A stretch of 64,000 nt of DNA, taken from NCBI GenBank assembly GCA_024613925.1, contig GCA_024613925.1_4713.1; one strand, given 5' to 3'. Both the position numbers and the translations under genes were made by a program. The notes under the pieces were generated by a model. It was not told where the DNA came from. It saw only the letters and a program-made list of their open reading frames with translations, and searched no databases. Of the stretch, positions 1,090-63,976 are shown piece by piece. Position 1 is the stretch's first letter; each line of letters begins with the position of its first letter. This DNA is from a phage.

Positions 1090-1090
1090 A

Positions 1091-19723: not shown

Positions 19724-19778
19724 GATGATTTCCTTCTTTATTAGGATAATTACGTTTTAGTCAGTTTAACAGCATAAA

Positions 19779-19803
19779 CCCTTCCTGCGTAAGGCAGGAA
19801 GGG
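19779..19803 (-). terminator. GC-rich hairpin (cccttcctgc...gcaggaaggg) followed on minus strand by TTTATGCTG
   Basis: 10-bp stem read from sequence. Confidence 0.55.
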
Positions 19804-19817
19804 CATACGGATTTGTT

Positions 19818-20315
19818 TTACGTGTGTCGTCGTTTACCAAAGAAAATGTGGCTGTCTACCACGGTGATATTGGTAGCATGTTTTCTGAAATGTTTAGGGC
19901 GAAGATGTTTCGTGTTAAAGAATACGGCTCCTCGTGTTGGGTCGGCTTTATGGTAAGCCGCAATGTCAGTATAACGTAATGTTGCGACCTCTCGTGCTAT
20001 TGCTCTTGCTCGCTCAAAAGCAGCATGATCGCGTATGATAATACGCCTTTGTTTTGTCCAGGGGAATTGACCTCTTTGCAGTACGACGTCTTTGACGTTC
20101 GTAGGGAATCGGTAGTCCATAGATCGATTATGTATTAAAAACGCCACGGAGTATTGCCCTTTTACAGATTCGCCTCTGGCTTCCATATACACGGCGCATG
20201 CGACGATCTCTTTCCGGCAATCGATTCTAGGTCCTGCGTTCACTGATGCTTGACTGAACGGTGTGATAAGCAACATAACAAGCCCTAAAATCAACGTGTG
20301 TAAAATACCTTGCAT
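19818..20315 (-). CDS. SleB-like cell wall hydrolase with N-terminal signal peptide (candidate lysis enzyme)
   Basis: Motif CAVYMEARGE typical of SleB/Hydrolase_2 family; signal peptide ending SQA; SD GAGGT. Confidence 0.6.
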   Translation of the reverse strand: MQGILHTLILGLVMLLITPFSQASVNAGPRIDCRKEIVACAVYMEARGESVKGQYSVAFLIHNRSMDYRFPTNVKDVVLQRGQFPWTKQRRIIIRDHAAFERARAIAREVATLRYTDIAAYHKADPTRGAVFFNTKHLRPKHFRKHATNITVVDSHIFFGKRRHT

Positions 20316-20856: not shown

Positions 20857-21249
20857 TTAAGATTCTCCGTGATACCCATAACCTTCATCCTCGACACGTC
20901 GACACCTCGGTAAAAATAAACACCAGCTTGTTGCACTGAGGATCGCCGTTGCGATGATACTTGCGATATCACCCAGTCGAGCATCGACCTGCCACATAAC
21001 AAGCATAAAAAGCCACATAACAAGCATAAAAAGAACGTACGCGAACCCATACACGATAAACCGTTTGATGTTGCGCGTCGACCCCGTACAAATATACAAA
21101 AGGGGAAGCTGCCCTATAACACAAACGATGGTTCGGATAACGTAATAAACGCGTTCCGTCGTTGTTTCAAAATCGATATTCGTTGCAGAAATCCCGATCA
21201 TTATAAAAGTGAAAAAGAAATAGATTTTTGCGTATGTCTTTAAACTCAT
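20857..21249 (-). CDS. multi-pass membrane protein containing a 21-bp in-frame tandem duplication
   Basis: Hydrophobic segments; duplication 20991-21032 encodes repeated MLVMW. Confidence 0.45.
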   Translation of the reverse strand: MSLKTYAKIYFFFTFIMIGISATNIDFETTTERVYYVIRTIVCVIGQLPLLYICTGSTRNIKRFIVYGFAYVLFMLVMWLFMLVMWQVDARLGDIASIIATAILSATSWCLFLPRCRRVEDEGYGYHGES

Positions 21250-26977: not shown

Positions 26978-27002
26978 TCTGTTTCCTTTTATCGGCATAA
27001 GC

Positions 27003-27021
27003 CCTCCCGGCATGGGAGGGT
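27003..27021 (-). terminator. GC-rich hairpin ccctccc ggcat gggaggg
   Basis: 7-bp stem; followed on minus strand by TTATGCC. Confidence 0.5.
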
Positions 27022-29535: not shown

Positions 29536-32271
<2,736 letters not shown>

Positions 32272-32306
32272 GATGGGAGGGACACAGGCAATACACTTTT
32301 ATTTCG

Positions 32307-32939
32307 TCAAGACTTCACGACGCATTCGACTTCGTCGTTCATATAAGCTTCGTATAACGACAGCACTTCCTTCATTTTAATTTCAGGTAACGCAACGGAA
32401 CGAATCGCTTTCAGGATATTCCGTGTTTGATGGTGTTTAACCTTCGCTTCACGGGATTTACAGAATTGACGAATACAGGTATTAACCTTACCGCCTTCTG
32501 CACGTTCGAGGGCGACATGCAGTTTCAGGTCAAGTAATACTTCCGTGAGTTCCTGGGTGGCAGGATCGTTACGAATAAGCCGCACCGTCCGTTCATCTGG
32601 ATTCAGCATCTCGAGGAACTGAAGCTTGATCTGTTCGGGTACGGGTTTCGTGTTCATCATGATGGCATCAAGCTGTTCCTTAACACCCGGCTCATTGAAC
32701 ACGTAACGTTCGATGCTTACGACGTGTGCTTTTCCTGACTCGCCATAAACCGCCATCGCACGATAGTCATCAAACAACACAGCATACAACAAATCCTGTT
32801 CCGGTCCGATGGTACCATCCATGAGCTTCGGCGCATGCTTCTTCAGGAAGCCATAGCGAACAGCCTCATCCGGCATGAGCGTCCACGCATTAACGGGTTG
32901 CTTTACGAGTTCCATGTAACACCTCATCAAGATTATCAC
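32307..32939 (-). CDS. hypothetical protein
   Basis: 210-aa ORF. Confidence 0.5.
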   Translation of the reverse strand: MIILMRCYMELVKQPVNAWTLMPDEAVRYGFLKKHAPKLMDGTIGPEQDLLYAVLFDDYRAMAVYGESGKAHVVSIERYVFNEPGVKEQLDAIMMNTKPVPEQIKLQFLEMLNPDERTVRLIRNDPATQELTEVLLDLKLHVALERAEGGKVNTCIRQFCKSREAKVKHHQTRNILKAIRSVALPEIKMKEVLSLYEAYMNDEVECVVKS

Positions 32940-40897: not shown

Positions 40898-41019
40898 CTC
40901 GTCGTAAAAGTAAATAGAGTTTTGTCGAGACGCCCTAATTACTTACAACGTCGGTTCTCCTGGCTTCAGAGAATTCTTAAAATCCGTTAGTTTTGATGGA
41001 CGGGATATGGCAGCATAAA

Positions 41020-41040
41020 AGCCTCCCATTACGGGAGGCT
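41020..41040 (-). terminator. GC-rich hairpin agcctccc atta gggaggct, followed on minus strand by TTTTATGCTG
   Basis: 8-bp stem. Confidence 0.55.
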
Positions 41041-41052
41041 CCATCAATCAAC

Positions 41053-41601
41053 TTATTTCACGAGAACAGCGAATTCGAGAACGTAAATAATTTCGTCATC
41101 CATCGGATTTGTTGTGGTATAGCCAGCAAATTGATAACCCATATCCGCGATAAAATCGCTAAGTTTATCAATATCGCCTACATTGATACGATCGTCAACA
41201 GACAGACGACATTTACGGGTTATGCCGCATCCGCGAGGAACGCAAGATAACACAGTTAGGAAATGCGCGATCTGGTTATTGGTTGCGAACTGTGCATAAT
41301 CGTCGTAGCGTTTAAGGTCTTTCATCACAGACTCTACTGTCATACGGCGACCAGGTGACACGTACTCAGAATAAGAATAAGCTGCGATCGTGCGGCGGTC
41401 TTCAGTTAAGTAAGTGTTCCCTTCAGGATGATAACTCTCGATTGTTCCGTCTTCATAGGCGACGGTCACAACAGGTGCGCCGTACTCGTCGCGACCAAAA
41501 TCAATTTTACATTTATCCGAAAGCGGTAGAACTGTACAAGGCTTTGCGTTGTTCTCATCTGGAAGATCGTAACCGCTCATCATTTTCAAAAACATAGACA
41601 T
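41053..41601 (-). CDS. hypothetical protein, paralog of 41688..42221
   Basis: Shared motifs NNAKP and TIAAYSYS/TIATYAYS. Confidence 0.5.
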   Translation of the reverse strand: MSMFLKMMSGYDLPDENNAKPCTVLPLSDKCKIDFGRDEYGAPVVTVAYEDGTIESYHPEGNTYLTEDRRTIAAYSYSEYVSPGRRMTVESVMKDLKRYDDYAQFATNNQIAHFLTVLSCVPRGCGITRKCRLSVDDRINVGDIDKLSDFIADMGYQFAGYTTTNPMDDEIIYVLEFAVLVK

Positions 41602-42221: not shown

Positions 42222-42330
42222 GTTTTATTCCTTAGTAGTCCTAGTAGTAGTATTGAGGAATTTCACCTCATTAGATAGTCTAATTTAGTAATGTTTTACT
42301 GAGCTATTGTTAACCCCAATACGAGCATAA

Positions 42331-42362
42331 CCCTCCTCCAACCCAACAGGGAAGGAGGAGGG
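42331..42362 (-). terminator. GC-rich hairpin ccctcctcc...ggaggaggg with inner ccc/ggg; followed on minus strand by TTATGCTCG
   Basis: 9-bp stem. Confidence 0.55.
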
Positions 42363-42371
42363 AATATGCTG

Positions 42372-42686
42372 TTATTCTGTTTTCGGTGTTGAACCGTTCT
42401 TCTTGAAGTCGGATTCGTATTTCACGTTAGAATCGAGAACCTCACGAACGGTTTTATCTGTACAACCACGAGCGATGTACGCATTAAGATCGTCGCGTAA
42501 TTTACGCATCGTTGTTTTATTAGCATCAGAAATATCTGACTTGGTAAGACGGAATGCAATTGCATCACGAACTTTATTCAGCGTTGCTGGGTTATTACGC
42601 TGTTCTGCAAATACCGCTTTGATGAATGTACCGCTATCTTTCGAAGCGATGGCTGCATCAAGAATTTCAATATGCTTTTCAGACAT
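42372..42686 (-). CDS. hypothetical protein
   Basis: 104-aa ORF. Confidence 0.5.
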   Translation of the reverse strand: MSEKHIEILDAAIASKDSGTFIKAVFAEQRNNPATLNKVRDAIAFRLTKSDISDANKTTMRKLRDDLNAYIARGCTDKTVREVLDSNVKYESDFKKNGSTPKTE

Positions 42687-48742: not shown

Positions 48743-48779
48743 CTTTATCTCCTTAACAGGTGCTGGTAACGCAGCATAA

Positions 48780-48799
48780 GCCCTCCCCGAAGGGAGGGC
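48780..48799 (-). terminator. GC-rich hairpin gccctccc cgaa gggagggc, followed on minus strand by TTATGCTG
   Basis: 8-bp stem. Confidence 0.55.
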
Positions 48800-48808: not shown

Positions 48809-49366
48809 TCACTCCATCCATACTTCTTCGTCGTAATGATTTTCTATCGCATTACGCCAAAAACGCACGGTGTCCAAACTAATCGGTGCGTAAAAGTGTT
48901 GGTCAACGCCTACGTTAAGTCCGTTGGCCTTCGCTAACATACAACGATGAATATGCCCGAATAGATTAAAGTAGCCTGGATTTCTTTCGCTGGGCTTATG
49001 GCATAGCCAGTAGGATTCGTCATTGCTAATCGGCAACACCAACGGGTGTTCATAAACAGCAGCAAACCCCATACCGAGCAGTTTATCACGCCACGCTTCG
49101 AAGCTTAATCCTGTCGCTTTGTATGCGTCTTCGTCCCAATTCCCCAATACCAATTGAACCTGGATATCAGAACGAATGGCTTCCACGAACTCGAACTTAC
49201 CCCAATCACCTAAATGCCACAACACACTGTTCTTTGGAAGCTTGTTGATGGCTTTCAGCATATGCTGGTTCATATCGGCGACGCTTGCGAACGGACGGCG
49301 TGAATACGTCCATGTACGCTCGCTATCAAAATGGGTATCCGACATAAAGAAGATGGGTGGGGTCAT
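48809..49366 (-). CDS. metallophosphoesterase (calcineurin-like phosphatase)
   Basis: SDTHFD, LGDWGK, GNWDE, FGHIH motifs. Confidence 0.7.
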   Translation of the reverse strand: MTPPIFFMSDTHFDSERTWTYSRRPFASVADMNQHMLKAINKLPKNSVLWHLGDWGKFEFVEAIRSDIQVQLVLGNWDEDAYKATGLSFEAWRDKLLGMGFAAVYEHPLVLPISNDESYWLCHKPSERNPGYFNLFGHIHRCMLAKANGLNVGVDQHFYAPISLDTVRFWRNAIENHYDEEVWME

Positions 49367-50706: not shown

Positions 50707-50740
50707 CTCCTCCCCAGGAAAGGTGTGGGGAGGAGTTTTT
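50707..50740 (+). promoter_or_regulatory. GC-rich hairpin ctcctcccca...tggggaggag followed by TTTTT, in divergent intergenic region upstream of helicase gene
   Basis: 10-bp stem plus T5 on plus strand; no plus-strand gene upstream within window. Confidence 0.4.
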
Positions 50741-50770
50741 ATCATACATTCTATTAAATCGAGCGCGATT

Positions 50771-52852
50771 ATGTTGGATAGAATCAATCGTTTAATGAAC
50801 CGAATAACGGTTAAAAATCAGAGTAACAATACCGTGCATATCGGGGGTATCGATGCCTGGCGTCTTTCAGATGACATTCAGCGAATATGGGGTACCTCCC
50901 GATTTATGAAACATATGTTTCGTAATTTCTCTTCTAGTGGACTCAGTCTCCACAACTTTTACCTTCCCGATTTCGTTTATATTCTCGAAACGATCATCGA
51001 GGCAAAGAATACTCGCAGTAATAAACGCATGCTGAAACACCTTATTGAGGTACTGCTGCAGGAAACCTGGTTGCAAAATACCACAATCGAGCAACCTGCA
51101 ATCCTCGATAAAGCACGCATGAACAAAATGCTAACGCTCTCCCTGTTCGATTATCAAGATGAGTTTATCGACATCTATAACCGTAACGTACCTAAATATC
51201 GACTGAAAGGATACGTGTGCGCGATGGGTGCGGGTGCGGGTAAAACAATCACCGCATTGGCTTTAAGCGCCGCAATGAACGTCGATGTATTTGTGGTTTG
51301 CTGTCCTAAGAACACCATGCGTTCAGCATGGCAATCCGATGTAAACAAAGCCATCGTTGACCCTGCAACAGAAACCGCGTTCTGGTCAGATACAATGCCC
51401 CCATCACAGCTGCAGAAAAGCGATAAGTATTATTTTCTGCATTACGAGTCGATGGGTTTATTAAACGAAGTAATGATCAAGCATAAACGCACAGCGAAGC
51501 GCGTGTTGATCGTGGTTGACGAAAGCCATAACTTCAACGACAAGAACAGCCAACGTTCCCAACGACTGGTTGATCTCGTACAGACGATGCGTCAGACCAT
51601 GAATGCGGATGTGCATGTCTTGTTTATGTCGGGTACGCCTGTTAAACAGATGGGTTCTGAGATGATCCCCTGTTTAGGTTGTATCGACCCGATGTTCCAA
51701 GGACAGGTGGTCGATAGCTTCAAAGCAATTTACGGTTTAACCAGCAGTCGCGCTAACGATATCCTCAGACATCGTCTTGGGTTCATGATGCATGTCGTAC
51801 CTAAAGAGGCTTACCGTAAAACCCGTCCGGAAGTTCAGGATGTTTACGTGAAGCTTCCTAACGGTAGCGATTATACCATCTCGAGCATTCGTGACGATAT
51901 GGCGATATTTGTACGCGATCGGGCGAAGTATTACAAGGATAACTGGGGGCATTACAGAAAGATTTTTGATGACGCGTTGGACTACTATCGCAAGACTATT
52001 CGTACCGATGGTGAACGTAAAGAGCTATCTCGATACGAATCGATTGTTGCTCGTTTCCAGAAAGGTTACGACCCCGTCAGAGACAAAGAAGATGCGATGT
52101 TCTGCAACACGTTTGAAAAACGAGCGATCATGCCGGTTCTTCCTTCCGATTTAAGGGTTGCTTTCAAAGACGCCAAGAGCGTCATCAAGTACGTTGGGTT
52201 GAAAATTCAGGGTGAAGCGTTGGCGCGTGTTCTAGGTGCAGCCCGCATTCGGTGTCATGTCGACATGGTGGAATACATCGACTTCGAAGGGTACATCAAC
52301 AACGCTGAAGCCAAGGTGTTGATCTTCACGTCGTATGTTCAGGTGGTTGAGCGCGTCGACAACCTGCTTCGTGATGCGGGTTTCTTACCTGAACCCATTT
52401 ACGGGAAGACCAACAAGAACATCAACCAGATACTTGTTCGTCTACGGGACGATCCTGACAGCGGTCCCGCTATCGCAACATTTGATAGCTTAGCTGAAGG
52501 GGTTCCGATGCTGATGTGTAATGTGGGTCTTTTCCTGAACAACCCGTGGCGTTCGTCCGATGAAATCCAAGCCATCAGCCGTCTCGATCGTGTAGGGCAA
52601 ACGCAACCTGTTCGGATTTATCGTTTCATGTTGGATACAGGAAGCGAGGGTAACGTTTCTACACGTAGCCACGAAATCATGGAGTTAAGTCGGCAGCTTG
52701 TTGAAGAAATCACGGGTGTCAAATACGTGGTGAACAAGCAAGACGATGTTAACTTGCAAGAAACGTTGGCGATGGAAGGATACGATCAATACGTTACCGT
52801 AAACACCACGGAATACGATATTAAACCGCGACCTGCGTTCTTGGAATGGTAA
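50771..52852 (+). CDS. SNF2-family (SF2) helicase/ATPase
   Basis: Walker A GAGAGKT, DExH VVDESHN, C-terminal QAISRLDRVGQ; start set at ATG 50771 downstream of hairpin. Confidence 0.7.
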   Translation: MLDRINRLMNRITVKNQSNNTVHIGGIDAWRLSDDIQRIWGTSRFMKHMFRNFSSSGLSLHNFYLPDFVYILETIIEAKNTRSNKRMLKHLIEVLLQETWLQNTTIEQPAILDKARMNKMLTLSLFDYQDEFIDIYNRNVPKYRLKGYVCAMGAGAGKTITALALSAAMNVDVFVVCCPKNTMRSAWQSDVNKAIVDPATETAFWSDTMPPSQLQKSDKYYFLHYESMGLLNEVMIKHKRTAKRVLIVVDESHNFNDKNSQRSQRLVDLVQTMRQTMNADVHVLFMSGTPVKQMGSEMIPCLGCIDPMFQGQVVDSFKAIYGLTSSRANDILRHRLGFMMHVVPKEAYRKTRPEVQDVYVKLPNGSDYTISSIRDDMAIFVRDRAKYYKDNWGHYRKIFDDALDYYRKTIRTDGERKELSRYESIVARFQKGYDPVRDKEDAMFCNTFEKRAIMPVLPSDLRVAFKDAKSVIKYVGLKIQGEALARVLGAARIRCHVDMVEYIDFEGYINNAEAKVLIFTSYVQVVERVDNLLRDAGFLPEPIYGKTNKNINQILVRLRDDPDSGPAIATFDSLAEGVPMLMCNVGLFLNNPWRSSDEIQAISRLDRVGQTQPVRIYRFMLDTGSEGNVSTRSHEIMELSRQLVEEITGVKYVVNKQDDVNLQETLAMEGYDQYVTVNTTEYDIKPRPAFLEW

Positions 52853-52860
52853 TTAAGAAG

Positions 52861-52886
52861 CTCTGCCTGATGTCAGGCAGAGCTTT
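52861..52886 (+). terminator. hairpin ctctgcct gatgtc aggcagag followed by CTTTATGCTG
   Basis: 8-bp stem 9 nt after helicase stop. Confidence 0.55.
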
Positions 52887-52912
52887 ATGCTGCGTTCGCT
52901 GCAAAATCGTAT

Positions 52913-52952: not shown

Positions 52953-54410
52953 ATGAAACTCAAACAAAGCTGGAAAGACGAACTTCTCGCGTTAGTAAAT
53001 AGCAAAAACGGTTTACAGCTGACATTAGCCGACGTAAAATTTGAACTAACTGAACCGGTAAGCGAAGTGCCCGGAACGGTTGTTGTTACGATCAAACCGA
53101 ACGATAATAGCCGTTACTTTAACGAGCAGTCTCTGACCTACATCCGTCGAGACATCGCTAAAAACTTCACCGGGATCCCGTTACGGGTTATCGTTAAAAA
53201 TGATACTGCTGTACGGGATATCATCAACACGATCGCCGAACGTTACGGATTAGTATTTGACACAACCGTCGACTTCCTCGAATCCGAGCTGAATAAACAA
53301 ATTACGTTCGAAGACACCGGTATTAAAGACATTACGGTTCCGGTTGCAAACACGTCTTATGTTTGGGCTGGTAATCTTCAGTTCAATATCGCTAACGATA
53401 CGTTGAGCTTGATTACAATCATCAAGCAAACCAATCTTACGAATCTGGTTTATCTGGATGGTGTTGAAGCTGACACATCGGGTTCGTTACTATTAGCGAC
53501 GGCCTCGATTATTGACGATACCGGAAATACCGAAGCGGCTGAAGGTATCCTTGACGCCGCGTACTTCCAGAATGTCCTGAACGTCATGGTTCGTTATGGT
53601 GATATTACCAGCGAACAAATGCAACAAGCAATGCAGACAATTAACCAAAGCGAAGACGCACGTAAAGTAGTGACGAGGTCATACGGTGACGTCGAATTAC
53701 TGGTAACCGCCAAGAAAGATTGGGTTATCGGTAGCCTTAAGGGTGTTATGGCTGTTGTTCGCGTTCTACCTAAACCAATCCAATACGTTTTTAAAACAAA
53801 AGGCGGCAGCGTTGCAATGTCATTAGCAGGTTGGAAAAATGTTTCCATCGATTGGGGTGATGGGACTAAGACGACGGAGACCGCCAGCAATAATGAATAT
53901 CGGCACTACTATGCGGACGGTGACACTACAGAACGTACGGTCGTCGCTACGGGTACTCCCTCCATAATCGTCGATACATCCGCAATGCATGGCTTCATTG
54001 GTGAAAACATCACTGAAATCGTTGACTGGAACAACGGATTACCTTACGCCCCAGTATACCTTTCGAGGTACAATTTAATTAAGGTTCCCGATTATATCCC
54101 GTCATATTGGACATCGTTAAATGGTATGTTTATGCAATGCCGCGCTCTTAACGACGTGAACATCACCAAATGGAACACCAGCAACATTACTTCAATGGAT
54201 AACCTCTTCTACAATTGCGCTGCGTTCAATCAGCCGATCGGTTCGTGGGATGTTTCGTCTGTTAAGAGTGTAAACAATATGTTGTCTGGGTGCTCCGCGT
54301 TCAATCAGGATCTGAGTGGTTGGACATTCCCGGCAGGCACTTCACACATCGACTACGACAACACTACCCACGCATGGCAGTCCGATTACAAACCACACTT
54401 CACCGAGTAA
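52953..54410 (+). CDS. receptor-binding protein: N-terminal adapter module plus C-terminal BspA-like leucine-rich repeats (paralog E)
   Basis: N-terminus closely matches paralog C (SLTYIRRDIAKNFTGIPLRVIV, AERYGLVFD); repeats KWNTSNITSMDNLFYNCAAFNQPIGSWDVSSVKSVNNMLSGCSAFNQDLSGW. Confidence 0.65.
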   Translation: MKLKQSWKDELLALVNSKNGLQLTLADVKFELTEPVSEVPGTVVVTIKPNDNSRYFNEQSLTYIRRDIAKNFTGIPLRVIVKNDTAVRDIINTIAERYGLVFDTTVDFLESELNKQITFEDTGIKDITVPVANTSYVWAGNLQFNIANDTLSLITIIKQTNLTNLVYLDGVEADTSGSLLLATASIIDDTGNTEAAEGILDAAYFQNVLNVMVRYGDITSEQMQQAMQTINQSEDARKVVTRSYGDVELLVTAKKDWVIGSLKGVMAVVRVLPKPIQYVFKTKGGSVAMSLAGWKNVSIDWGDGTKTTETASNNEYRHYYADGDTTERTVVATGTPSIIVDTSAMHGFIGENITEIVDWNNGLPYAPVYLSRYNLIKVPDYIPSYWTSLNGMFMQCRALNDVNITKWNTSNITSMDNLFYNCAAFNQPIGSWDVSSVKSVNNMLSGCSAFNQDLSGWTFPAGTSHIDYDNTTHAWQSDYKPHFTE

Positions 54411-54431
54411 AAAAAAAAATAGTTAGCACAT

Positions 54432-54464
54432 CTTCCTCCCTACCCATAACGGGCGGGGAGGAAG
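54432..54464. terminator. GC-rich hairpin cttcctccc...gggaggaag between convergent genes; A9 run at 54411-54419
   Basis: 9-bp stem with inner ccc/ggg; followed on plus strand by TTTATGTC. Confidence 0.55.
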
Positions 54465-54481
54465 GTTTATGTCAATTTAAT

Positions 54482-55779: not shown

Positions 55780-57354
55780 TTACAATTCAAAATCTTCATC
55801 GATAACGCGCTGGGTAAGCACTTTGTCGCTGAAGAACTCCACCTTGCGCTGATGGTATTTACGGTGCGCTTCAATAGAAGTACATACCAGATACCAGAAC
55901 GTTGGTGTCATTCCTTCAAACTTCCCTTTCAGCTGACGCAGTCGCCCCAACACCTGAATGTTACCGGTTCGTGACCCCATCGCTAATGTCATGAACGTCA
56001 TCACCAAGTCAGGAAGGTCGATACCTGTACCTGCCGATTTCACGGTTGTAACGCTGATATCGTTATCCAACAAGACCATGAAATCTTCTTCAGCAGTATA
56101 AGGACCAATCTCTAACTCAGGAATACGTTCACTGAGATAATGCGATAACGACTTACACATATCAACGGTTGCACAATACACCAGCATCTTCATACCTTCC
56201 TGATACTGGTTCATGAAACCTTTGATGATAACCGTATAGATAAAGTTGAAATAGGCGAGTTTGAGTTGCTTGTTCTTCATGATAGACTGTTCGAATATCG
56301 TGTGAGAATAAGAACCCCCAAACCCTTTGTATCTGACTTTATCTGTACTGCGTAGTCGATACGTCACGGCATTTACCGCAATGTATTTCTTGTATTCGCA
56401 TTTCGCATAACGCGCTTCTTTCGGATACATCAAATACAACATCCGCTCGATGAACGGATCGTCAGACACCGCTGTTGCCGACAGATAGATGATTTCCGGA
56501 ATATTTGCATAGCACTTCACTTTGAACAAGAAATGCAAGGCTTCATGGCATTCATCGTGGATCAACAACCCAATACCTGTTTTCTCCCAGAACTCGGCGG
56601 GATGGAAAACATAAGGTGCGACACAATTGTTCTTTTCATAATCGGTTATGTATCTCTGAAACATGTTCAGCGAGAATAACGCAATTTTGAAATCCAGCTC
56701 ACCTTGTTCCACCAACGTCTGGAATTCCAGCATGCTGTAACGAGGAATGTCTGGATGCGGTGGGTCAGATTGGGCTGTACCGCGTATCTCGATAACATCG
56801 CCTGGTTCCATACCGAAGAAACTTAGCAACGAGCTGCGCCATCCAGGCATGTATCTCGGTGACAGAATAATGCCCGTCCGTACACCACGTCGGAAGGTGA
56901 TCTCCTGCGACATGGCTGTTTTACCACTGCCCGTGCCTGCGGTGTTTAGGCTCATTCTGAAGGGGGTATCCTTACCCCCATCCATGTACTCCAACCATTC
57001 TTGCTGATCTTCGCGCCACGGGAACTTCCATTTCTTTACGAACTCCACTTCCTTACCTGGCACCGGATCGTGATAAACGATTTCCAACCACTCTTTTCGG
57101 ATTCCTCGAGAGAAGATAAAATCCAAAAACGATTTCAACTGTTCACGGAGTAAGTATACCTCGCTATAATCGCTTCTTGCCGCGGCATACGTGTTTATGG
57201 TATCGGTAACCATTCTCCGTGTACGAGGGTCACGTCGTTTCCTCAGATGCAAACAACGGTCTCGAAGGTAATGGCCGATAAGATGGGCAAATCGAAGTCC
57301 GTATCCGCTCAGCCTCATGCCATGCGAGAAGACGTCGATACGAGCTAACTTCAT
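55780..57354 (-). CDS. DEAD/DEAH-box-like SF2 helicase
   Basis: Walker A GTGSGKT, motif II LIHDECHE, motif III SAT, TAT... GRLRQ. Confidence 0.65.
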   Translation of the reverse strand: MKLARIDVFSHGMRLSGYGLRFAHLIGHYLRDRCLHLRKRRDPRTRRMVTDTINTYAAARSDYSEVYLLREQLKSFLDFIFSRGIRKEWLEIVYHDPVPGKEVEFVKKWKFPWREDQQEWLEYMDGGKDTPFRMSLNTAGTGSGKTAMSQEITFRRGVRTGIILSPRYMPGWRSSLLSFFGMEPGDVIEIRGTAQSDPPHPDIPRYSMLEFQTLVEQGELDFKIALFSLNMFQRYITDYEKNNCVAPYVFHPAEFWEKTGIGLLIHDECHEALHFLFKVKCYANIPEIIYLSATAVSDDPFIERMLYLMYPKEARYAKCEYKKYIAVNAVTYRLRSTDKVRYKGFGGSYSHTIFEQSIMKNKQLKLAYFNFIYTVIIKGFMNQYQEGMKMLVYCATVDMCKSLSHYLSERIPELEIGPYTAEEDFMVLLDNDISVTTVKSAGTGIDLPDLVMTFMTLAMGSRTGNIQVLGRLRQLKGKFEGMTPTFWYLVCTSIEAHRKYHQRKVEFFSDKVLTQRVIDEDFEL

Positions 57355-59357
57355 AACGTGATTACATCCTCCGGTTTAGGTTCTTTACGCGGTAACAGCA
57401 TGTAGTCGATCGGATGATCCGGCTTCATGGTTGGGATATAACTGTTCGGGTTTTGGAACGCATCCAGCTGCTCTTGGTGAGCGAACTTCATACTCAAGGA
57501 GCGCATGTTCATGTTCTTCTTGAAGGTACTGAAGTATCGTGTTGTTCCCTGTTTCGGCATGCGATAATCTTTCGTGTGTGGCGAACGAATCATGCTGGCG
57601 TAGAGAATAACATCGAGATGCGAAAGGTTCATTCGCAGACGCTGGGCACACAGACGATGCCAATAGTACAGCACGTTTGCAACTTCCTCCGGTGTTGCTT
57701 CGTCTTCCGAGAGGAATCCGGCACTGAAAGAACATTTCCCGAATTTGAACTCACGTTCGATTTCTTTTGCGTACTCCATCATGTTTTTGTGGATTAACGG
57801 CATCTGGAATAACGTACGTGAATTGTCCCAGTGTTTCAAGTCGAAAATCACAATCCCGTCAGACGTCACTTCCCAGCTATGGCGTTTGAGGTAACGGATA
57901 AACGCTTTACTCGGTACAACAGGACGACCACAGAAATCGAAATTGACTTTGAGCTTACGATAGCTTTCATCTTTCCTGTCGTAAATCTCCATATCGCAAA
58001 GCGTCATGTTAAACAGACGTTGCGGTATCAGCGAACTGATTTCTTCCGCTTCCGCTACGTCATACAACATGTTCGCAAGACCTAACTTCATCTTAATCAA
58101 CACGTGTTTACCTTTCAGCTCACGTGCGAGTTTGATGTCGTTCATGTTCTGGCTGTAGCGAAGGATATGTTGATATTCCGGTGGGATTGGTGCTGTGGAT
58201 ACCGTTGACGAACCATCGTGATGTTTGGTAGAAAGAATGTTCTGCGTTACCTGTTGCGAACAGGTACGTGCTGCACCATCACCGACATTATCAGTCAATG
58301 CGAAGTTATGACTTAATTCACCGTAACACGTCGTACATACCCCAGCAGGATCGGGATGATGACAATAGTTAACGGAGCGCATGCGTACCGTCGTACCAAT
58401 CAATTCTTTCATGTGTGGCTGTATCGCTACCAACGAACCGTCATCACGAATAATGAATCGACCGTGGAAGCCACGCAGGTCGGTCTCATCACGGATTGGC
58501 ATCGGGATGGTCTCTTTACTACCACAATCACCAGGATGGAGTCGCTGTACAACCGCCGTCGCTATCTGAAGTTCACGACCGAAATATTCAGACTTTTTAA
58601 TCTGCTCTTTGTTGAACAGCAACGATTTCGCCGCAGAACGACTTTCTTTCAAGCTGTCAGGAAGAGAGATCAAACCGGCTGCATACGACCGCATTACCGG
58701 ATCGCGGAATATCTCGGAGTTAATATCGGTCAAGAATCCACGCATCCCAATACACTGCAGCACCTGCCCAATCGAAACGTGTTCGGTTCTTACCGCACGT
58801 GCAATAGGGTTTGCATGTAGCGTTTTATCGGTGCTCAGTACCTTCGTCAGTTTCTTGTATGCGCTTTCAATGCCTTCGCGGGTGGGTTCCGCTTCGGCGA
58901 TGATTTTCTTAACTTCGGGATGTACGGTAATCTGATAAAAATCGTCCGCGCAAATCGTTGTTACGTATTCCTCCAACGCATACGTAAAGAAGTTATATAC
59001 ATTGTTAAACATATCGAACAATGCTTTCCAGAGAACCTCACGATTCTCTTGCGGATAAGCATACATGCATTGACGATACGCGGCGCTTTGCAACGCAACC
59101 GATGAACCCGCTGTGAACTTGCGTTTATCAACCAGGTTCTCTTTTGTCAGTGGGGTCTCAGGATACATGCGATGCACAGACCAGTGCATGTAACTAAAGA
59201 AAATGCGTCGCGCACGCAATTCATGAACGCCATCGTCCATCTCGATATACACACGGTCATTAGGCTGTGCCCACTCGAACACCTCATCAACCGGCCAATG
59301 CATAAGCTCGCGTGCCCTCACACGACGTTTCGTGGTGGTTGTCTGTGTTGTAATCAT
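57351..59357 (-). CDS. RNA polymerase beta-prime-like subunit, C-terminal portion (bridge helix and trigger-loop region)
   Basis: By-eye alignment to bacterial RpoC: GMRG (bridge helix) and RSVNYCHHPDPAGVCTTCYGEL...GDGAARTCSQQVTQNILSTKHHDG vs RSVVSCDTDFGVCAHCYG...IGEPGTQLTMRTFHIGG. Confidence 0.6.
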   Translation of the reverse strand: MITTQTTTTKRRVRARELMHWPVDEVFEWAQPNDRVYIEMDDGVHELRARRIFFSYMHWSVHRMYPETPLTKENLVDKRKFTAGSSVALQSAAYRQCMYAYPQENREVLWKALFDMFNNVYNFFTYALEEYVTTICADDFYQITVHPEVKKIIAEAEPTREGIESAYKKLTKVLSTDKTLHANPIARAVRTEHVSIGQVLQCIGMRGFLTDINSEIFRDPVMRSYAAGLISLPDSLKESRSAAKSLLFNKEQIKKSEYFGRELQIATAVVQRLHPGDCGSKETIPMPIRDETDLRGFHGRFIIRDDGSLVAIQPHMKELIGTTVRMRSVNYCHHPDPAGVCTTCYGELSHNFALTDNVGDGAARTCSQQVTQNILSTKHHDGSSTVSTAPIPPEYQHILRYSQNMNDIKLARELKGKHVLIKMKLGLANMLYDVAEAEEISSLIPQRLFNMTLCDMEIYDRKDESYRKLKVNFDFCGRPVVPSKAFIRYLKRHSWEVTSDGIVIFDLKHWDNSRTLFQMPLIHKNMMEYAKEIEREFKFGKCSFSAGFLSEDEATPEEVANVLYYWHRLCAQRLRMNLSHLDVILYASMIRSPHTKDYRMPKQGTTRYFSTFKKNMNMRSLSMKFAHQEQLDAFQNPNSYIPTMKPDHPIDYMLLPRKEPKPEDVITL

Positions 59358-59988: not shown

Positions 59989-60102
59989 AATCTCATTTCC
60001 TCTTCTACGTAGAAATAGATGACATGTTGGATATACGTTGCCTTTGCATATATTGCTTTATTTCCGTCAGAAATAACGGAAAATAAAAACAACGACATAA
60101 TT

Positions 60103-60132
60103 CCCTCCCACCTCCACATGGGAGAGGGAGGG
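60103..60132 (-). terminator. GC-rich hairpin ccctccc...cacatggg...gggaggg, followed on minus strand by AATTATGTC
   Basis: Imperfect stem read from sequence. Confidence 0.5.
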
Positions 60133-60145: not shown

Positions 60146-60508
60146 TTATTCTACGCTGTCTTCTTCCGTATCGTCCTCTTCAGAACCATCGAATGTTTTC
60201 ATTGTGACGGTGGTATCCCAGTTAGCTGCGTAATCGGCCATCGCTTCACGCAATGCTTCTTCACCAGCATCACCAGCCAGGTCAAGTACAACCAAACCCT
60301 GTGCGACGTTTTGAGCAACGGTATCAATAACGGTTGCATCTTCTTCAAAACTACGTACGGGTTCAATGGTACCTACATCAACAGCGTAGTTCGTGGTTGC
60401 TGTAAACACGGCGACTTGTAGCGCATTGCTATCTTCATCATGCAGTGCTGCTTCAATACCGATTGGACGAGCCAGTTCTTGCAGTGTTAATTTGCGAATT
60501 AAGTTCAT
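60146..60508 (-). CDS. hypothetical acidic protein
   Basis: 120-aa ORF. Confidence 0.45.
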   Translation of the reverse strand: MNLIRKLTLQELARPIGIEAALHDEDSNALQVAVFTATTNYAVDVGTIEPVRSFEEDATVIDTVAQNVAQGLVVLDLAGDAGEEALREAMADYAANWDTTVTMKTFDGSEEDDTEEDSVE

Positions 60509-60881: not shown

Positions 60882-60960
60882 ACCAGGGATCCTCTTTTAA
60901 GTGTTCACATTCTAGTGTTAAGCAGTTAAAATAAACCGTCCCTTTAATCAGCATAAACAT

Positions 60961-60989
60961 CCTCCTCCCACCACATGGGCAGGAGGAGG
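60961..60989 (-). terminator. GC-rich hairpin cctcctcc...cacatggg...ggaggagg, followed on minus strand by TGTTTATGCTG
   Basis: 8-bp stem. Confidence 0.55.
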
Positions 60990-61000: not shown

Positions 61001-61411
61001 TCAGAAAGGAGGACGATCTTTAAATTCTAGCAATGTATCTTCGAAGCAAGCGATAAGTTCAGACTGCAATTCGGTACGGCCTTGTTCACCGAAGAGTTCC
61101 AGCAACATTAACCCCCGAGCGGTCTTCGTAGCAACCTCTTCGCAGATGCGGAGATCGCGAACTTCATCATCGCCGACATCTTTACGTAACTGCGCTGCAA
61201 TGGGCTTAAGATTGCCGTTTTCATCGTGTTCGTCACGAAATGCATCATAAGCCGCATCGATGTTCGCGATCCGTGTCAATCCTTCAGAATCCCGCCAGTC
61301 TCGATATAATCCAAGCAGACGGTTATGATTCTTCGTTTTGACGTTCGGTGCTGGAAGGTTGCGCAACAGATGTGGTGTAATCATTGCTATCACGCTATCC
61401 GAATGATCCAT
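61001..61411 (-). CDS. hypothetical protein
   Basis: 136-aa ORF. Confidence 0.45.
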   Translation of the reverse strand: MDHSDSVIAMITPHLLRNLPAPNVKTKNHNRLLGLYRDWRDSEGLTRIANIDAAYDAFRDEHDENGNLKPIAAQLRKDVGDDEVRDLRICEEVATKTARGLMLLELFGEQGRTELQSELIACFEDTLLEFKDRPPF

Positions 61412-61422: not shown

Positions 61423-63591
61423 TTAGCTTTCGCAGTCATCTGCGTCGATGATTTGTCCGCCAGCAACGTTCAGTTGATGATACAGAATCCTCAACGCACG
61501 GTTGCCGCCAATTGGATACTTCTCGAAGTTGGTCGCAATAGGAATCGCTGACGGTTTATCGGTCGCATAGATGCTTTCAGTGATGCTATCCACCTGTTTT
61601 GGATTGTTCGCATAATCCATAAAGACGCTTGCGAACCATCCGCCAGCAAAGGCGGTAACTTCGCGATGCTCAGATTCACCACAGTAACGAGTTGGTTGCT
61701 CTTTACCCGGAGAACTGTATTTATCGCTATTACTGAGTTTCGACGGTAATCCGTGCGCTTGCAGTTTAGGAATACCCACCGCTGACCAATCGTTCGCCGT
61801 CTTCTCCAGCATCATGATGTACGTGTCACCGATCGCAATATCGTTCTTGGTTGTCCGCCACTGCCCGGAACGCCCACGATACCGTACAGGACCTTTCTTC
61901 AACGGGAACTCACGAATCAGATTCTCCATACGTTCTGAACCTGCTGCGATACTGTCCGTCGGGATATAAACTTCCGTACCGTGGCGTTGTACGTACCGTA
62001 AATGATCCCATTTATCCTCATCCGTGATACAGTATTTTTCAACAACCTGTTCCACGAATTCAGGACTGACGATATAGTAGTAGCGCATCAGTGTGTTCCA
62101 AGCGGTCTCCAGATCGCCTGCATCCATCACCGGTTTCAGTTCACGCATGATCTGATCACCAACGCCGTTGATGTACGGTGCGTTAACACGACTTAAACTC
62201 ATCCTTTTGATTACCGTACTATCGTCGAACATGAAGTCCGCAACATTACCCCATTGGTCAACCGGCATTTCATCGTCTTCCATGATGTCGGTTACAACGA
62301 ATTTATCACCCGCCATACCGGTGAATTTAAACCCGATACCTGGAACAACGTCATACGTGTACGTGATGGTCACACGCCAATCATCGAGATTCTCTTTGCG
62401 GTAATCGCGGGTCGGTAGCACATGACGTAGCTGTCCGTTGGGATTGCGGATATCAATACCATGTTCAGCATCAGCCAGGTTCAACCACCACATCACCGTT
62501 TGATGATGACGTATCGGCGTACCAACGCGTTCACGTTCGTACTTACGAACAGCATCCTGAATTCGGGTGTAAAGCAAACCGATCGCGTTCTCGTATTTCA
62601 GGAATTGACGATACGGAGGACGCATCTTCTCTTCCATCATAATCGCACGCTCGCGGGCTTGACGTCCAGAACGACGATGTCGATCGCTGACAACATCGAT
62701 ATCCGTTACACGCGCATTCGGTTCCGCGTAAGTGAGATCATCGTAAACATAATCCACACGCTGAAGGTTACACGTCATCATGTCAACAACGCTGAGGATA
62801 GGATCGATTTCGCGTGTTGCTGCAAGCAACCCATCTTTACGAATACGCTCGCCGTTCTCGGGTATTGCTTGGTATACTTCGTCATCACCGTAGAGATTGA
62901 TTGGGTATCGCGATTTACCTGACGTGATTGTTCGCTTCTCAATACCTGTGCTGGTGAAATGCTTCAATACACCACGACGGGCAACGCCACCATCTTCAAT
63001 ACATTGGTAGAAGCTACCGAAACACACCTTGCAATCGCGACCGTAACCCCACTCACGTGTTTCTTGATTGATCGCTGGGCTTTCCATCAAACGAGAATAT
63101 CGCGGTACGATCTGGCCTCGACGGAGGGAATGGAACAAGTTGGTTGGTCGAAAACGGAAACCGTACTGCTGATGCATGATGTGATGCTCAGGCACTTCAA
63201 GCAAGCGTAGCTCGTGACGGTTACCATCCTCTTGGTTTTCGTACAGCACGTAATGCATCGTGTTTGTTTTGATGCTGTTTGCTGTATGCCCCGGTTGGAA
63301 ACGTGGGATGATATCTATGATGCGAGATTCGACTGGAAACTCTACTGACCACGTGTTCTGTCCGTACTGGTATTCGATCCCCGTCGTCAGTCGGGACGGT
63401 TTCGCATCTTTGATAACCAACGCTTGGCTAAGATGTCCACCAAACATCGCAGCGCGCTGTGCTGAGTTATAATGCAATAGCCCGTTAAGTCCAGTCCCTA
63501 CGCCAGTATACTCCTGTTTAATGGGAATGATTTTACCTTCAGCGATTGCCTGCTTCACAGATTCATAAAGAGGTTTTTCTTTATAATGCAT
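61423..63591 (-). CDS. RNA polymerase beta-like subunit (C-terminal portion homologue)
   Basis: Weak by-eye similarity to RpoB C-terminal regions (GMAGDKFVVTDIMEDDEMPVDQWGNVADFMFD; YIMMLEKTANDWSA...GESEHREVTAFAGGWFASVFMDY); start set at MHYKEK (SD AGGAAG) rather than track start 63756. Confidence 0.45.
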   Translation of the reverse strand: MHYKEKPLYESVKQAIAEGKIIPIKQEYTGVGTGLNGLLHYNSAQRAAMFGGHLSQALVIKDAKPSRLTTGIEYQYGQNTWSVEFPVESRIIDIIPRFQPGHTANSIKTNTMHYVLYENQEDGNRHELRLLEVPEHHIMHQQYGFRFRPTNLFHSLRRGQIVPRYSRLMESPAINQETREWGYGRDCKVCFGSFYQCIEDGGVARRGVLKHFTSTGIEKRTITSGKSRYPINLYGDDEVYQAIPENGERIRKDGLLAATREIDPILSVVDMMTCNLQRVDYVYDDLTYAEPNARVTDIDVVSDRHRRSGRQARERAIMMEEKMRPPYRQFLKYENAIGLLYTRIQDAVRKYERERVGTPIRHHQTVMWWLNLADAEHGIDIRNPNGQLRHVLPTRDYRKENLDDWRVTITYTYDVVPGIGFKFTGMAGDKFVVTDIMEDDEMPVDQWGNVADFMFDDSTVIKRMSLSRVNAPYINGVGDQIMRELKPVMDAGDLETAWNTLMRYYYIVSPEFVEQVVEKYCITDEDKWDHLRYVQRHGTEVYIPTDSIAAGSERMENLIREFPLKKGPVRYRGRSGQWRTTKNDIAIGDTYIMMLEKTANDWSAVGIPKLQAHGLPSKLSNSDKYSSPGKEQPTRYCGESEHREVTAFAGGWFASVFMDYANNPKQVDSITESIYATDKPSAIPIATNFEKYPIGGNRALRILYHQLNVAGGQIIDADDCES

Positions 63592-63622
63592 AGGACTTCC
63601 TATTATCGAATTGAGGTACGTC

Positions 63623-63976
63623 ATGTCTAACACGCCCCTGAACGACTTTCTTAAGACAAACCCCGATGACCTCATCCACGATCTTGATTTCAGGAACGTT
63701 GTTGAGATGCATCTGGAATATTTCAAAAATGCCGGACTGGTCTCTACGATAGACATACCACCCGAACGTGCCTACGAATTCGATGGTAACTTTTATGGAT
63801 TGTGCCGTGTTCTGCTCGGTGAGGGCAGTGAACCAATGCACTGGATAACCATGAGACTCAATGGCTATCGTGACCCCACGGAATACACCGCCGATGTTCT
63901 AACCATGAAGATTGTCGATACAAGCGCAATCAACACATTAAAACAACAGTACCGCACAATCCACTACAGCGCTTAA
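63623..63976 (+). CDS. hypothetical protein (plus strand)
   Basis: ATG at 63623 with SD GAGGT; ORF runs to 63976. Confidence 0.35.
   Translation: MSNTPLNDFLKTNPDDLIHDLDFRNVVEMHLEYFKNAGLVSTIDIPPERAYEFDGNFYGLCRVLLGEGSEPMHWITMRLNGYRDPTEYTADVLTMKIVDTSAINTLKQQYRTIHYSA

Follow-up and report, generated by a model that had tools for sequence, protein, structure and literature searches.

The GC-rich intergenic hairpins followed by TTATG in the window, by which we mean the whole 64,000-nt stretch of phage DNA analysed here, are most probably factor-independent terminators of the phiKZ-like (Chimalliviridae) type, serving the phages' own split multisubunit RNA polymerases (RNAPs). We put the probability of this reading at about 85%. 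The hairpins share one motif, occur non-randomly, are placed and oriented in a regular way with respect to genes, and have a motif identical with that of phiKZ; it is this homology of signal that suggests the same function in the window phage. The signal is essentially known, having already been mapped in phiKZ, and the window adds a case from an E. coli phage that is closely related to Goslar.

The hairpin from which the analysis started lies at 41020-41040. The plus strand reads AGCCTCCC-attac-GGGAGGCT and the minus strand, which is the coding strand, reads GGAGCCTCCCGTAATGGGAGGCTTTTATGCTGCC. The complete putative terminator (41010..41042, minus strand) consists of GGAGCCTCCCG-taa-TGGGAGGCTTT and then TTATGCTG. 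Its fold has an energy of -17.5 kcal/mol (z = -3.3), and it begins 10 nt past the stop codon of ORF 41053..41601. In the record of Goslar, a nucleus-forming jumbo phage to which the window is about 93% identical, the orthologous hairpin (132985-133005) is annotated 'putative transcriptional terminator'; the hairpin together with TTTTATGC is unchanged there, and the flank downstream has diverged. Five orthologous hairpins in total are labelled putative terminators in that record.

How many such elements does the window hold? The first-pass annotation had listed 13 intergenic hairpins as a repeated family with a TTATG flank. The family is real, and stable hairpins are present at 13/13 of the listed sites, while the list itself needs revision. 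Eleven sites are members (1617, 6057, 19779, 27003, 41020, 42331, 48780, 52861, 54432, 60103 and 60961), each with [T/A/C]TATG 0-5 nt from the stem when read on the strand that carries the gene upstream. The other two, 39637 and 47343, were excluded as purine-arm-first hairpins without an abutting tail; the closest TTATG is about 12-20 nt off and belongs to the ribosome-binding site and start codon of the next gene. The list had also passed over two members, at about 11100 and 32270 (11085-11116, CAATATGCG, and 32255-32290, GTTATGCTG). This makes 15 instances of hairpin plus TATG at 13 intergenic sites, with energies from -14.6 to -27.1 kcal/mol. A pyrimidine-rich 5' arm, a purine-rich 3' arm and a short loop are found in all 15, and the tail after the stem is TTATG-C-Y-G, with the variants ATATG (11100 and the plus strand of 42331) and CTATG (6057).

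The inner ccc-loop-ggg tier, also pointed out in the first-pass annotation, is seen at 1617, 6057, 42331 and 54432. At 1617..1657 on the plus strand, CCCTCTCCC-TT-CCC-ttac-GGG-TT-GGGAGAGGG followed by cTTATGCTG ends ORF 1040..1600 (-27.1 kcal/mol, z = -5.9). Read on the minus strand (1609..1650), the same hairpin is followed by TTATGTTAC and ends the convergent ORF 1666..2040. With a tail on each strand and the two ORFs converging on it, this site would be a bidirectional terminator. The minus-strand element at 6046..6086 is GCTCCTCC-AA-CCC-gtca-GGG-AA-GGAGGAGC and then tGCTATGG (-25.9 kcal/mol), with a separate CGTATGAAATTTCC 14 nt beyond its tail. The GCTATG at this site resembles phiKZ late transcription start site (TSS) contexts in the part of the published table that was covered. 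At 42322..42362 (minus strand, 9 nt past the stop of ORF 42372..42686), CCCTCCTCC-TT-CCC-tgtt-GGG-TT-GGAGGAGGG is followed by TTATGCTCG (-26.6 kcal/mol), and the hairpin read on the plus strand (42331..42371) is followed by AATATGCTG, a copy of the tail on the antisense strand. The fourth two-tier element, at 54430..54474 on the plus strand, has ATCTTCCTCCC-t-ACCC-ataac-GGG-c-GGGGAGGAAGGT and then TTATGTCA (-26.1 kcal/mol), ending ORF 52953..54410 at a convergent junction.

Of the other members, seven more lie on the minus strand. Six of these are TCCCTCTATCTCG-ctttgt-CGGGATAGAGGGG plus CAATATGCG at 11074..11116 (-22.6 kcal/mol); GCCCTTCCTGC-cttac-GCAGGAAGGGT plus TTATGCTGT at 19768..19804, 13 nt past the stop of ORF 19818..20315 (-22.8 kcal/mol, z = -6.7); CCCTCCC-atgcc-GGGAGGG plus cTTATGCCG at 26992..27020 (-14.6 kcal/mol); TGCCTGTGTCCCTCCC-atcg-TGGGTGGGCACGGGCG plus TTATGCTGA at 32246..32290, 16 nt past the stop of ORF 32307..32915 (-27 kcal/mol); GCCCTCCC-ttcg-GGGAGGGC plus TTATGCTGC at 48771..48799, 9 nt past the stop of ORF 48809..49366 (-18.8 kcal/mol); and CCCTCCCTCTCC-catgt-GGAGGTGGGAGGG plus AATTATGTCG at 60093..60132, 13 nt past the stop of ORF 60146..60508 (-21.5 kcal/mol). 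The seventh, CCTCCTCCTGCC-catgt-GGTGGGAGGAGG plus atgtTTATGCTG, is found at 60949..60989, 11 nt past the stop of ORF 61001..61411 (-23.9 kcal/mol). On the plus strand, GAAGCTCTGCCTG-atgt-CAGGCAGAGCTT(T) plus TATGCTGC at 52857..52893 (-23.7 kcal/mol) stands 4 nt past the stop of the helicase ORF 50723..52852, and its Goslar orthologue carries a terminator annotation.

Is the association of hairpin and tail more than chance? The predicted enrichment of the tail over shuffled sequence was borne out: TTATGCTG occurs 11 times in the window versus 1.83 +/- 1.41 times in dinucleotide shuffles, and 11 copies were reached in 0 of 100 shuffles. Of the 11 copies, seven stand right beside a family hairpin and one more (11128) is found 11 nt beyond the 11100 hairpin on the opposite strand, at the extreme end of an ORF; the remaining three are ORF-internal and have no hairpin. 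TTAT follows 22 of 49 intergenic hairpins versus 0 of 31 ORF-internal ones (Fisher p = 3.5e-6). A hairpin of -15 kcal/mol or lower ends within 5 nt upstream of 15 among the 133 TTATG, and with a looser cut-off of -12 kcal/mol the number is 19/133, versus 2.6% of random positions. The hairpins begin 2-19 nt past the stop codon in sense orientation on the coding strand (median 14 nt for the hairpin plus TTAT instances of an automatic scan), with the tail sharing the strand of the gene before it, and present on both strands where genes converge. The TTAT is offset by -2 to +2 from the stem in 14 of 16 sense-oriented hairpin plus TTAT instances, and the following bases are G (12/16), C (10/16), T or C (14/16) and G (10/16), showing the K-Y-Y-G-T pattern of phiKZ. 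G next to TTAT is also strand-dependent, with 70/103 in sense versus 12/36 in antisense orientation (p = 4e-4).

In phiKZ, the conserved intrinsic-terminator motif BCCYCCCCHWWDGGGRRGGBYTTATKYYGT comes from 61 terminators mapped by ONT-cappable-seq (Putzeys et al. 2024, Microlife, PMC10914365). Goslar (whole genome), phiKZ (150 kb) and 126 viral-contig sites all yielded the same consensus. The consensus tails are TTATGCtG in the window, TTATGcyGt in Goslar and TTATGttgT in phiKZ, and the 126 sites, on uncultivated and mostly jumbo-sized IMG/VR contigs, give TTATG-Y(88%)-Y(90%)-G(59%)-T(51%). Searched as hairpin plus TTATG, 63 of the 80 loci listed are on contigs measuring 200 kb or more; searched as the hairpin core alone, 11 of the 80 listed are. 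On non-jumbo contigs, T-runs come after the core in 12 cases and TTATG is rare (2/154). The window and phiKZ share a pyrimidine-first GC-rich stem, short loops of the UUCG, GUAA or TTAC type, an abutting TTAT and then G/T-Y-Y-G-T; they also share the placement closely past stop codons, the bidirectional use at convergent genes, and the encoding of split multisubunit RNAPs. The phiKZ terminator behind the major head gene, GGCCCTCCCTTCGGGGAGGGCT-TTATGTTGT, is near-identical to the window element at 48771..48799, and in the same way GCCCTCCCTTCGGGGAGGGC-TTATGCTG of the window site 48780 pairs with GGCCCTCCCTTCGGGGAGGGCT-TTATGTTG of phiKZ. There are also differences. The window tail prefers TTATGC(T/C)G whereas phiKZ prefers TTATGTTGT, the G after TTAT is stricter in the window, and the subfamily with the long two-tier stem CCCTCCTCC-TT-CCC-loop-GGG-TT-GGAGGAGGG is unlike phiKZ. 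For 201phi2-1, a phage of another genus and host, the authors describe a terminator motif A with strong resemblance to that of phiKZ, and its terminators, most of them with motif A, proved active in vivo when tested with two reporters, lowering expression of the one downstream (Microb Biotechnol 2024, PMC11512511).

The Goslar genome has a full set of split multisubunit RNAP subunits as well as a nuclear shell protein, and the host of the window phage, which is Goslarvirus-like in genus, is E. coli, while phiKZ and 201phi2-1 are Pseudomonas phages. Two phage multisubunit RNAP subunit genes are inside the window, both on the minus strand: 57351..59357 (PHROG 3015 'RNA polymerase beta subunit', E = 5.8e-170, orthologue of Goslar gp165) and 61423..63756 (PHROG 3295, E = 2e-180, orthologue of Goslar gp171). 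A helicase gene comes next after the former, as phiKZ gp75 does after gp74. Note that both subunit genes are context, outside the hairpin motif itself.

Compared with the canonical Rho-independent terminator, the elements also have a GC-rich hairpin directly before a weak A/U hybrid and are bidirectional at convergent sites. The first-pass annotation was right that the tail is not classical, for the canonical U-tract is about 7-9 nt and mostly U, whereas here there is UUAU alone and then the conserved G-Y-Y-G-T. A generic terminator scan of the window (5 T in 8 nt) returned 41654 and 39637 and missed nearly all sites of the TTATG family. A generic sigma-70 promoter scan of the window gave fewer promoter-like sites than expected from shuffles, and an Rfam search placed the hairpins in no RNA family, its sole match being IS009, inside a tail-fibre-assembly-like ORF.

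How would such an element work? The nascent RNA would form a GC-rich hairpin of very high stability in which the pyrimidine-rich arm leads, and which often has a UUCG- or GNRA-like loop or a second inner CCC/GGG tier. The UUAU behind the stem would form a short weak hybrid segment in place of a long U-tract, and then come two junctions of a pyrimidine and G, namely between TTAT and G and between GYY and G. The polymerase would halt and free the RNA 4-8 nt past the stem. In the part of the phiKZ table covered (TSS P008-P126, transcription termination sites T034-T076), the published RNA 3' ends are 4-8 nt past the stem and mostly at pyrimidine-G junctions, and the termination sites placed on the genome range from TTA[T] to TTATGY[Y]. 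One explanation we offer for the conserved G..YYG might be this position of the 3' ends. The junctions may be pause or termination points by analogy with the pause consensus of E. coli RNAP, the basis of this suggestion, which is possibly inapplicable to divergent polymerases. Such elements would close single genes or small cassettes, act on both strands at convergent ends, and often be followed by separate promoters. Behind some hairpins the gaps are short, 19 nt at 27003 and 36 nt at 48780, so the downstream genes there must be served by read-through or by a start site that escaped recognition. Note also that ONT 3' ends alone cannot tell termination from 3' trimming to a protective hairpin.

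The first-pass annotation had taken the elements as composites, a terminator plus a TATG-containing promoter or processing signal. The terminator part agrees with sense-oriented hairpins 2-19 nt past stops that match the mapped phiKZ motif. Could the abutting TATG then restart transcription of the next cassette? This instinct has a basis, as late promoters of this phage family have TATG as their core: in phiKZ the late promoter is 5'-TATG-3' with G as +1, bound by gp123, a subunit of the non-virion RNAP (nvRNAP) (Yakunina 2015, PMC4666361; Chen 2026, PMC12809450). Initiation by nvRNAP needs TATG with a G start and gp123 reads the non-template strand, on which the hairpin tails have the same four bases; 7 of 14 residues of the gp123 TATG pocket are identical in Goslar gp039, an equivocal level of conservation. 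TATG is present in 15/15 window instances, a 4-mer being weak evidence alone; variants on jumbo contigs drop the first T and keep TATG (GTATGCC, CTATGCC, ATATGAC), and some downstream genes begin 19-36 nt past the G with no other promoter recognisable. The promoter role nevertheless fails at convergent ends, where TTATG is kept with no same-strand gene downstream (1617 on both strands, and 54432). The frequency of G after TTAT, pooled over window, Goslar and phiKZ, shows no significant difference between convergent (27/36) and tandem (43/67) sites. In phiKZ the base after TTAT is K (G or T) and not strictly G, the conserved YYGT is missing from late-promoter logos, and no hairpin precedes P119L, a validated late promoter. 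By the phiKZ proxy, 0 of the 57 late TSS inspected in the covered part of the table start at a hairpin-abutting TATG. For six of these 57 a terminator hairpin lies at most 50 nt upstream, and transcription begins at a second TATG, 6-38 nt on (P049 and P075 at a second GCTATG 6-10 nt on; P016, P054, P078 and P104 about 21-38 nt on). A restart at the abutting TATG, with G as +1 for nvRNAP, is therefore improbable. Terminators are indeed often followed by promoters, of all three classes, at a distance of a few to about 40 nt, and these are separate elements. A separate late-promoter motif, CGTATGA, was considered and set aside: 3 of its 15 copies are intergenic, and it is suggestive at 6057, 52861 and 59391 and not statistically solid. 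Among k-mers enriched in Goslar upstream regions were ribosome-binding sites, TATATTAC (early-promoter-like) and TTTATGC(CGT), which is the terminator tail, and no additional late-promoter word.

The processing alternative takes the hairpins as 3' protective caps and TTATG(C) as an endonuclease site, the 3' ends arising from cleavage and trimming. Processing and termination look alike in ONT-cappable-seq 3' ends, and an AU-rich single-stranded stretch behind a stem is a typical RNase E context; stems of 8-13 bp, on the other hand, are too short for RNase III. Against processing, the conserved YYGT extends beyond many of the mapped 3' ends in the covered part of the phiKZ table, the signal is common to Pseudomonas and E. 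coli phages and follows jumbo-sized contigs rather than hosts, and the mostly motif A terminators of 201phi2-1 lower reporter expression downstream. We regard this reading as very improbable, and nothing observed requires it. What if the hairpins were dispersed selfish or neutral palindromic repeats, like REP or MITE, with no role in transcription? Many loci do carry near-identical two-tier copies, a different place in Goslar (49766-49807) has a sequence with 100% identity to the 42-nt element of window 1617, and loop inversions between the window and Goslar, such as the exact reverse complement that Goslar has in the 27003 loop, show hairpin dynamics at the DNA level. The two genomes, being about 93% identical, are too similar for compensatory changes. 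Such repeats would have no fixed relation to gene ends and would show signatures of mobility, whereas here the tail orientation is strict relative to the upstream gene, the hairpins closely follow stop codons, and terminal repeats, target duplications or a transposase were not noted at the sites and flanks read. The consensus is moreover common to phiKZ despite weak protein similarity (29% identity between gp123 and Goslar gp039), and in the covered part of the phiKZ table transcript ends map at the motif, which makes a repeat of this kind hardly credible. Equally negligible is a translation signal, in which the GGAGG arm would be a Shine-Dalgarno sequence and TTATG would supply the ATG that opens a small ORF or the next gene. 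GGAGG is indeed 3-5 nt ahead of ATG, and at 27003 ORF picking took the hairpin-tail ATG as a start codon; the CDS annotated there in Goslar is equal in length, so its annotators apparently took the same ATG. The GGAGG, however, is held in a stem of about -15 to -27 kcal/mol, its spacing to ATG is shorter than in the phage's own ribosome-binding sites, the ORFs opened are just a few codons long in varying frames, phiKZ does not keep the ATG (TTATT and TTATA variants), and the motif is present at convergent ends too.

Returning to the termination reading, Pseudomonas and E. coli phages have kept this tail in common at protein identities of only about 30%, which points to a termination signal that co-evolved with the unusual phage RNAPs. 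It is conceivable, if rather unlikely, that one four-base element is both the start signal for the phage polymerase and a sequence-specific pause or stop signal after a nascent hairpin; no discussion of the overlap between the tail and the late-promoter core was found in the literature searched. If this were true, the enzyme might re-initiate nearby while still on the DNA, and it would explain why TATG and not a U-tract is kept across genera and why promoters cluster behind terminators. For annotation, the rule is a pyrimidine-first GC hairpin plus TTATG-YY-G no more than about 20 nt from a stop codon. It can be used to annotate the ends of transcription units in nucleus-forming jumbo phages, Goslar-like ones and others, where generic predictors mostly miss them, and the same signal flags jumbo-sized contigs in viral contig collections.

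Where does this DNA come from? Its region 38000-46000 matches Goslar (Escherichia phage vB_EcoM_Goslar) with 93% identity and 87% query coverage, the sole megablast match, and two ORFs match phage RNAP subunit families, 57351..59357 (E = 6e-170) and 61423..63756 (E = 2e-180). The window thus belongs to a phage of the Goslar type within the phiKZ-like group, in which transcription is independent of the host polymerase. The Goslar genome is 237 kb; this jumbo phage forms a nucleus, and its record includes several split "RNA polymerase beta subunit" genes along with PhuZ tubulin and a nuclear shell protein. A helicase gene follows ORF 57351..59357, in parallel to the order gp74 then gp75 in phiKZ, and nearly all genes of the window are on the minus strand, the exception being a block at 50.7-54.4 kb.

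The focal hairpin is at 41020-41040, where the first-pass annotation had placed it, and reads GGAGCCTCCCGTAATGGGAGGCTTTTATGCTGCC on the minus strand, which is the coding strand (-17.5 kcal/mol, z = -3.3). Stable hairpins are present at all 13 sites listed in that annotation, and the inner ccc-loop-ggg element is found at four sites as a second tier, TT-CCC-loop-GGG-TT. A TATG tail had been described for most of the listed sites; it is present at 11 of the 13, with (T/A/C)TATG 0-5 nt from the stem in the orientation of the upstream gene, and absent at 39637 and 47343. These two were rejected as family members, being purine-arm-first, and the closest TTATG belongs in each to the RBS and start codon of the gene that follows. 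Energy-based and stem-first scans added two members that had been overlooked, 11085-11116 and 32255-32290. With tails on both strands at 1617 and 42331, the family then counts 15 instances at 13 sites.

The stems of the family have pyrimidines mainly in the 5' arm and purines mainly in the 3' arm (CCCTCC...GGAGGG), and the loops are of TTCG, GTAA(T) or TTAC type. The hairpin starts 2-19 nt past the stop codon in those members with a called upstream ORF; when all cases of hairpin + TTAT from the automatic scan are taken, the median from stop codon to hairpin start is 14 nt. Aligned on TTAT, the tail in the window continues with G (12/16), C (10/16), Y (14/16) and G (10/16), and the next gene start on the same strand is 19-129 nt away. 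The enrichment on which the first-pass reading depended was borne out against shuffled sequence: 11 copies of TTATGCTG were observed where 1.83 are expected, a count not reached in any of 100 shuffles. Seven of the 11 copies are directly next to a family hairpin, one (11128) is at an ORF end 11 nt beyond the 11100 hairpin on the opposite strand, and the remaining three are ORF-internal without a hairpin. TTAT follows 22/49 intergenic hairpins of the window versus 0/31 ORF-internal ones (p = 3.5e-6).

This element is the phiKZ terminator motif, already mapped in that Pseudomonas jumbo phage by ONT-cappable-seq of transcript ends (Putzeys et al. 2024, PMC10914365). In another, 201phi2-1, motif A strongly resembles it, and eight terminators were validated in vivo (PMC11512511). 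The match upholds the terminator half of the first-pass interpretation; the 3' ends at the motif and the in vivo activity of related elements are taken from this literature, whereas terminator function in the window phage and a role of G..YYG are inferred. The Goslar record labels five orthologous hairpins, including the focal one, "putative transcriptional terminator". The whole Goslar genome was assembled and scanned as the window was, together with 150 kb of phiKZ. Goslar has about 40 family members with consensus TTATGcyGt, many sharing a near-identical two-tier stem, CCCTCCTCCTTCCCTTACGGGTTGGAGGAGGG, and TTAT follows 53/139 intergenic versus 10/138 ORF-internal hairpins. The numbers in phiKZ are 64/119 and 1/25, with consensus TTATGttgT, and some of its elements coincide almost completely with ones of the window, for example GGCCCTCCCTTCGGGGAGGGCT-TTATGTTGT past the major head gene and GCCCTCCCGTAATGGGAGGGC-aTTATGTTGT. 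The motif, its statistics, its geometry relative to genes and its identity across genera are established by the present sequence analysis. The family is real and strongly non-random: it represents, in an E. coli phage close to Goslar, the terminator signal of the phiKZ type.

Is the abutting TATG also a promoter, as had been proposed? The idea is reasonable, TATG with G at +1 being precisely the consensus of phiKZ late promoters, but it is not supported, and five results are against it. Convergent gene ends keep the tail with no downstream gene to express (1617 on both strands, and 54432), and G follows TTAT at 27/36 convergent and 43/67 tandem ends, no significant difference when window, Goslar and phiKZ are pooled. 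In the same pool G follows in 70/103 sense versus 12/36 antisense cases (p = 4e-4). No upstream hairpin is found at the validated phiKZ promoter P119L, and a conserved YYGT is absent from the phiKZ late-promoter logo (Yakunina 2015, PMC4666361). Of 119 phiKZ start sites inspected in the supplementary TSS table that accompanies the bioRxiv preprint by Putzeys et al., 57 are classed late; in six of these a terminator hairpin is present in the preceding 50 nt, and not one of the 57 begins at a hairpin-abutting TATG (calibrated on P119L, the reported position is one base past the G). For P049 and P075 the start is a second GCTATG, 6-10 nt beyond the abutting one, and for P016, P054, P078 and P104 it is about 21-38 nt beyond it. 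These start sites make it unlikely that at individual sites the hairpin stops transcription and the abutting TATG restarts it, although gaps of 19 nt at 27003 and 36 nt at 48780 leave scant space for another promoter. The phiKZ early/middle promoters P017, P023, P028 and P099 likewise stand directly behind terminator tails; therefore a terminator with a promoter behind it is a common arrangement, but the two are distinct elements. The sites 6057 (GCTATGG, then CGTATGAAATTTCC) and 52861 (CGTATGACG, 25 nt past the tail) look like candidate pairs of this kind. On the minus strand at 6029-6041, GTATGAAATTTCC follows the 6057 terminator at a distance of 14 nt and is a candidate late promoter (TATG) with initial transcribed sequence; it is seen again upstream of Goslar gp188 (about 235230), an unrelated virion gene. 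CGTATGA is also intergenic at 52908 (+) and 59391 (-).

A role of hairpin + TTATG in RNA processing or stability is very unlikely: ONT 3' ends alone do not distinguish processing from termination, but processing gives no account of the conserved bases past many mapped ends. The spread of near-identical copies, one 42-nt element being 100% identical at two loci, could fit a selfish repeat, yet the strict orientation relative to genes would be left unexplained, and we give this origin hardly any weight. Equally far-fetched is a translation start with GGAGG as RBS and the ATG of TTATG as start codon; this fails because the stem sequesters GGAGG and the phiKZ elements lack a conserved ATG.

Compared with Goslar, to which the window is about 93% identical, four hairpins have the loop or inner segment reverse-complemented with arms unchanged (1617-1648, 17439-17480, 27002-27020 and 52857-52886), for example ATGCC/GGCAT at 27003, ATGT/ACAT at 52861 and the entire inner tier at 1617. 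Flips of this kind arise where inverted repeats undergo recombination or template switching. At the 27003 terminator (about 27020-27030) the Goslar alignment is in two pieces, skipping about 860 bp of Goslar (117703-118565, gp112-gp113 region), an indel or replacement directly at the hairpin. A pyrimidine-first hairpin, CTCCTCCCCA...TGGGGAGGAG followed by TTTTTATCATAC, is at 50707-50735 (+) in the divergent region ahead of the plus-strand helicase gene, and its Goslar orthologue is annotated as a terminator. An A11/T11 run (54411-54421) is beside the 54432 hairpin, on the side suited to the minus-strand gene. There is also a second class of strong intergenic hairpins with the purine-rich arm first, at 39637-39660, 41654-41677 and 47343-47372 on the minus strand (arms TGCGGGTGGG..., GAGGGGGTGGG... 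and GAAGGTGGATGGG...), 7-10 nt past stop codons, with neither TTATG tail nor U-tract; the Goslar orthologue of 41654 is annotated as a terminator.

Other motifs were seen as well. Two intergenic regions on the minus strand, at about 23107-23140 and at about 50597-50630, have nearly identical copies of TTTCACGGCTATATTACTTA(G/C)GTGA, which probably serve as early promoters for the virion RNAP: TATATTAC matches the core of published phiKZ early promoters (TATATTAC), is the top-enriched 7-8-mer in Goslar upstream regions and is also ahead of the shell-protein gene. The repeat TTATTAGCAATC in two intergenic regions (23072-23083 and 47943-47954, -), in each some 30-40 nt ahead of a gene start, may act like a middle promoter. 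Coding ORF 20857..21249 contains, at about 20985-21035 (-), two direct tandem copies of a 21-nt sequence, CTTTTTATGCTTGTTATGTGG. The only Rfam match above gathering score, IS009 (RF02111; 6685-6883, -; 163 bits, full length), is inside ORF 6642..7226, adjoining a 1070-aa ORF placed like the Goslar P1 gpS-like tail-fibre gene. The match is probably due to homology at the DNA level with the tail-fibre-assembly region of an E. coli prophage, not to an RNA gene.

How would the terminator work? On the genome, published phiKZ TTS (rows T034-T076) range between TTA(T) and TTATGY(Y), at a distance of 4-8 nt from the stem, close to the range of cellular RNAPs, for which hairpin-dependent release is usually at about 7-9 nt. 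Many phiKZ 3' ends are at a pyrimidine-G junction (TTAT/G or GYY/G), which resembles Y(-1)G(+1), the consensus pause of bacterial RNAP. The element is most likely a compact intrinsic terminator, in which a very stable hairpin is followed by a weak hybrid of four bases, UUAU, and by one or two putative built-in pause junctions in place of a long U-tract. A speculative further reading is that at terminators TATG on the non-template strand enters the promoter-reading pocket of the type found in gp123, the phiKZ nvRNAP subunit; 7/14 of the pocket residues are kept in its Goslar homologue gp039.

How widely is the signal used? The pattern CCCTCCC-N4-5-GGGAGGG-N0-2-TTATG was scanned over 2.9 million viral contigs and gave 99 stretches, with contigs of at least 200 kb in 63/80 of the matches listed, often several per contig. 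Without the tail the hairpin pattern occurs in all contig sizes, jumbo-sized ones being 11/80 among the matches listed; in non-jumbo contigs T-runs come next in 12 cases and TTATG in only 2/154. After TTATG, 126 distinct sites show Y (88%), Y (90%), G (59%) and T (51%). Therefore hairpin + TTATG, not the hairpin alone, is a hallmark of jumbo-sized phage genomes.
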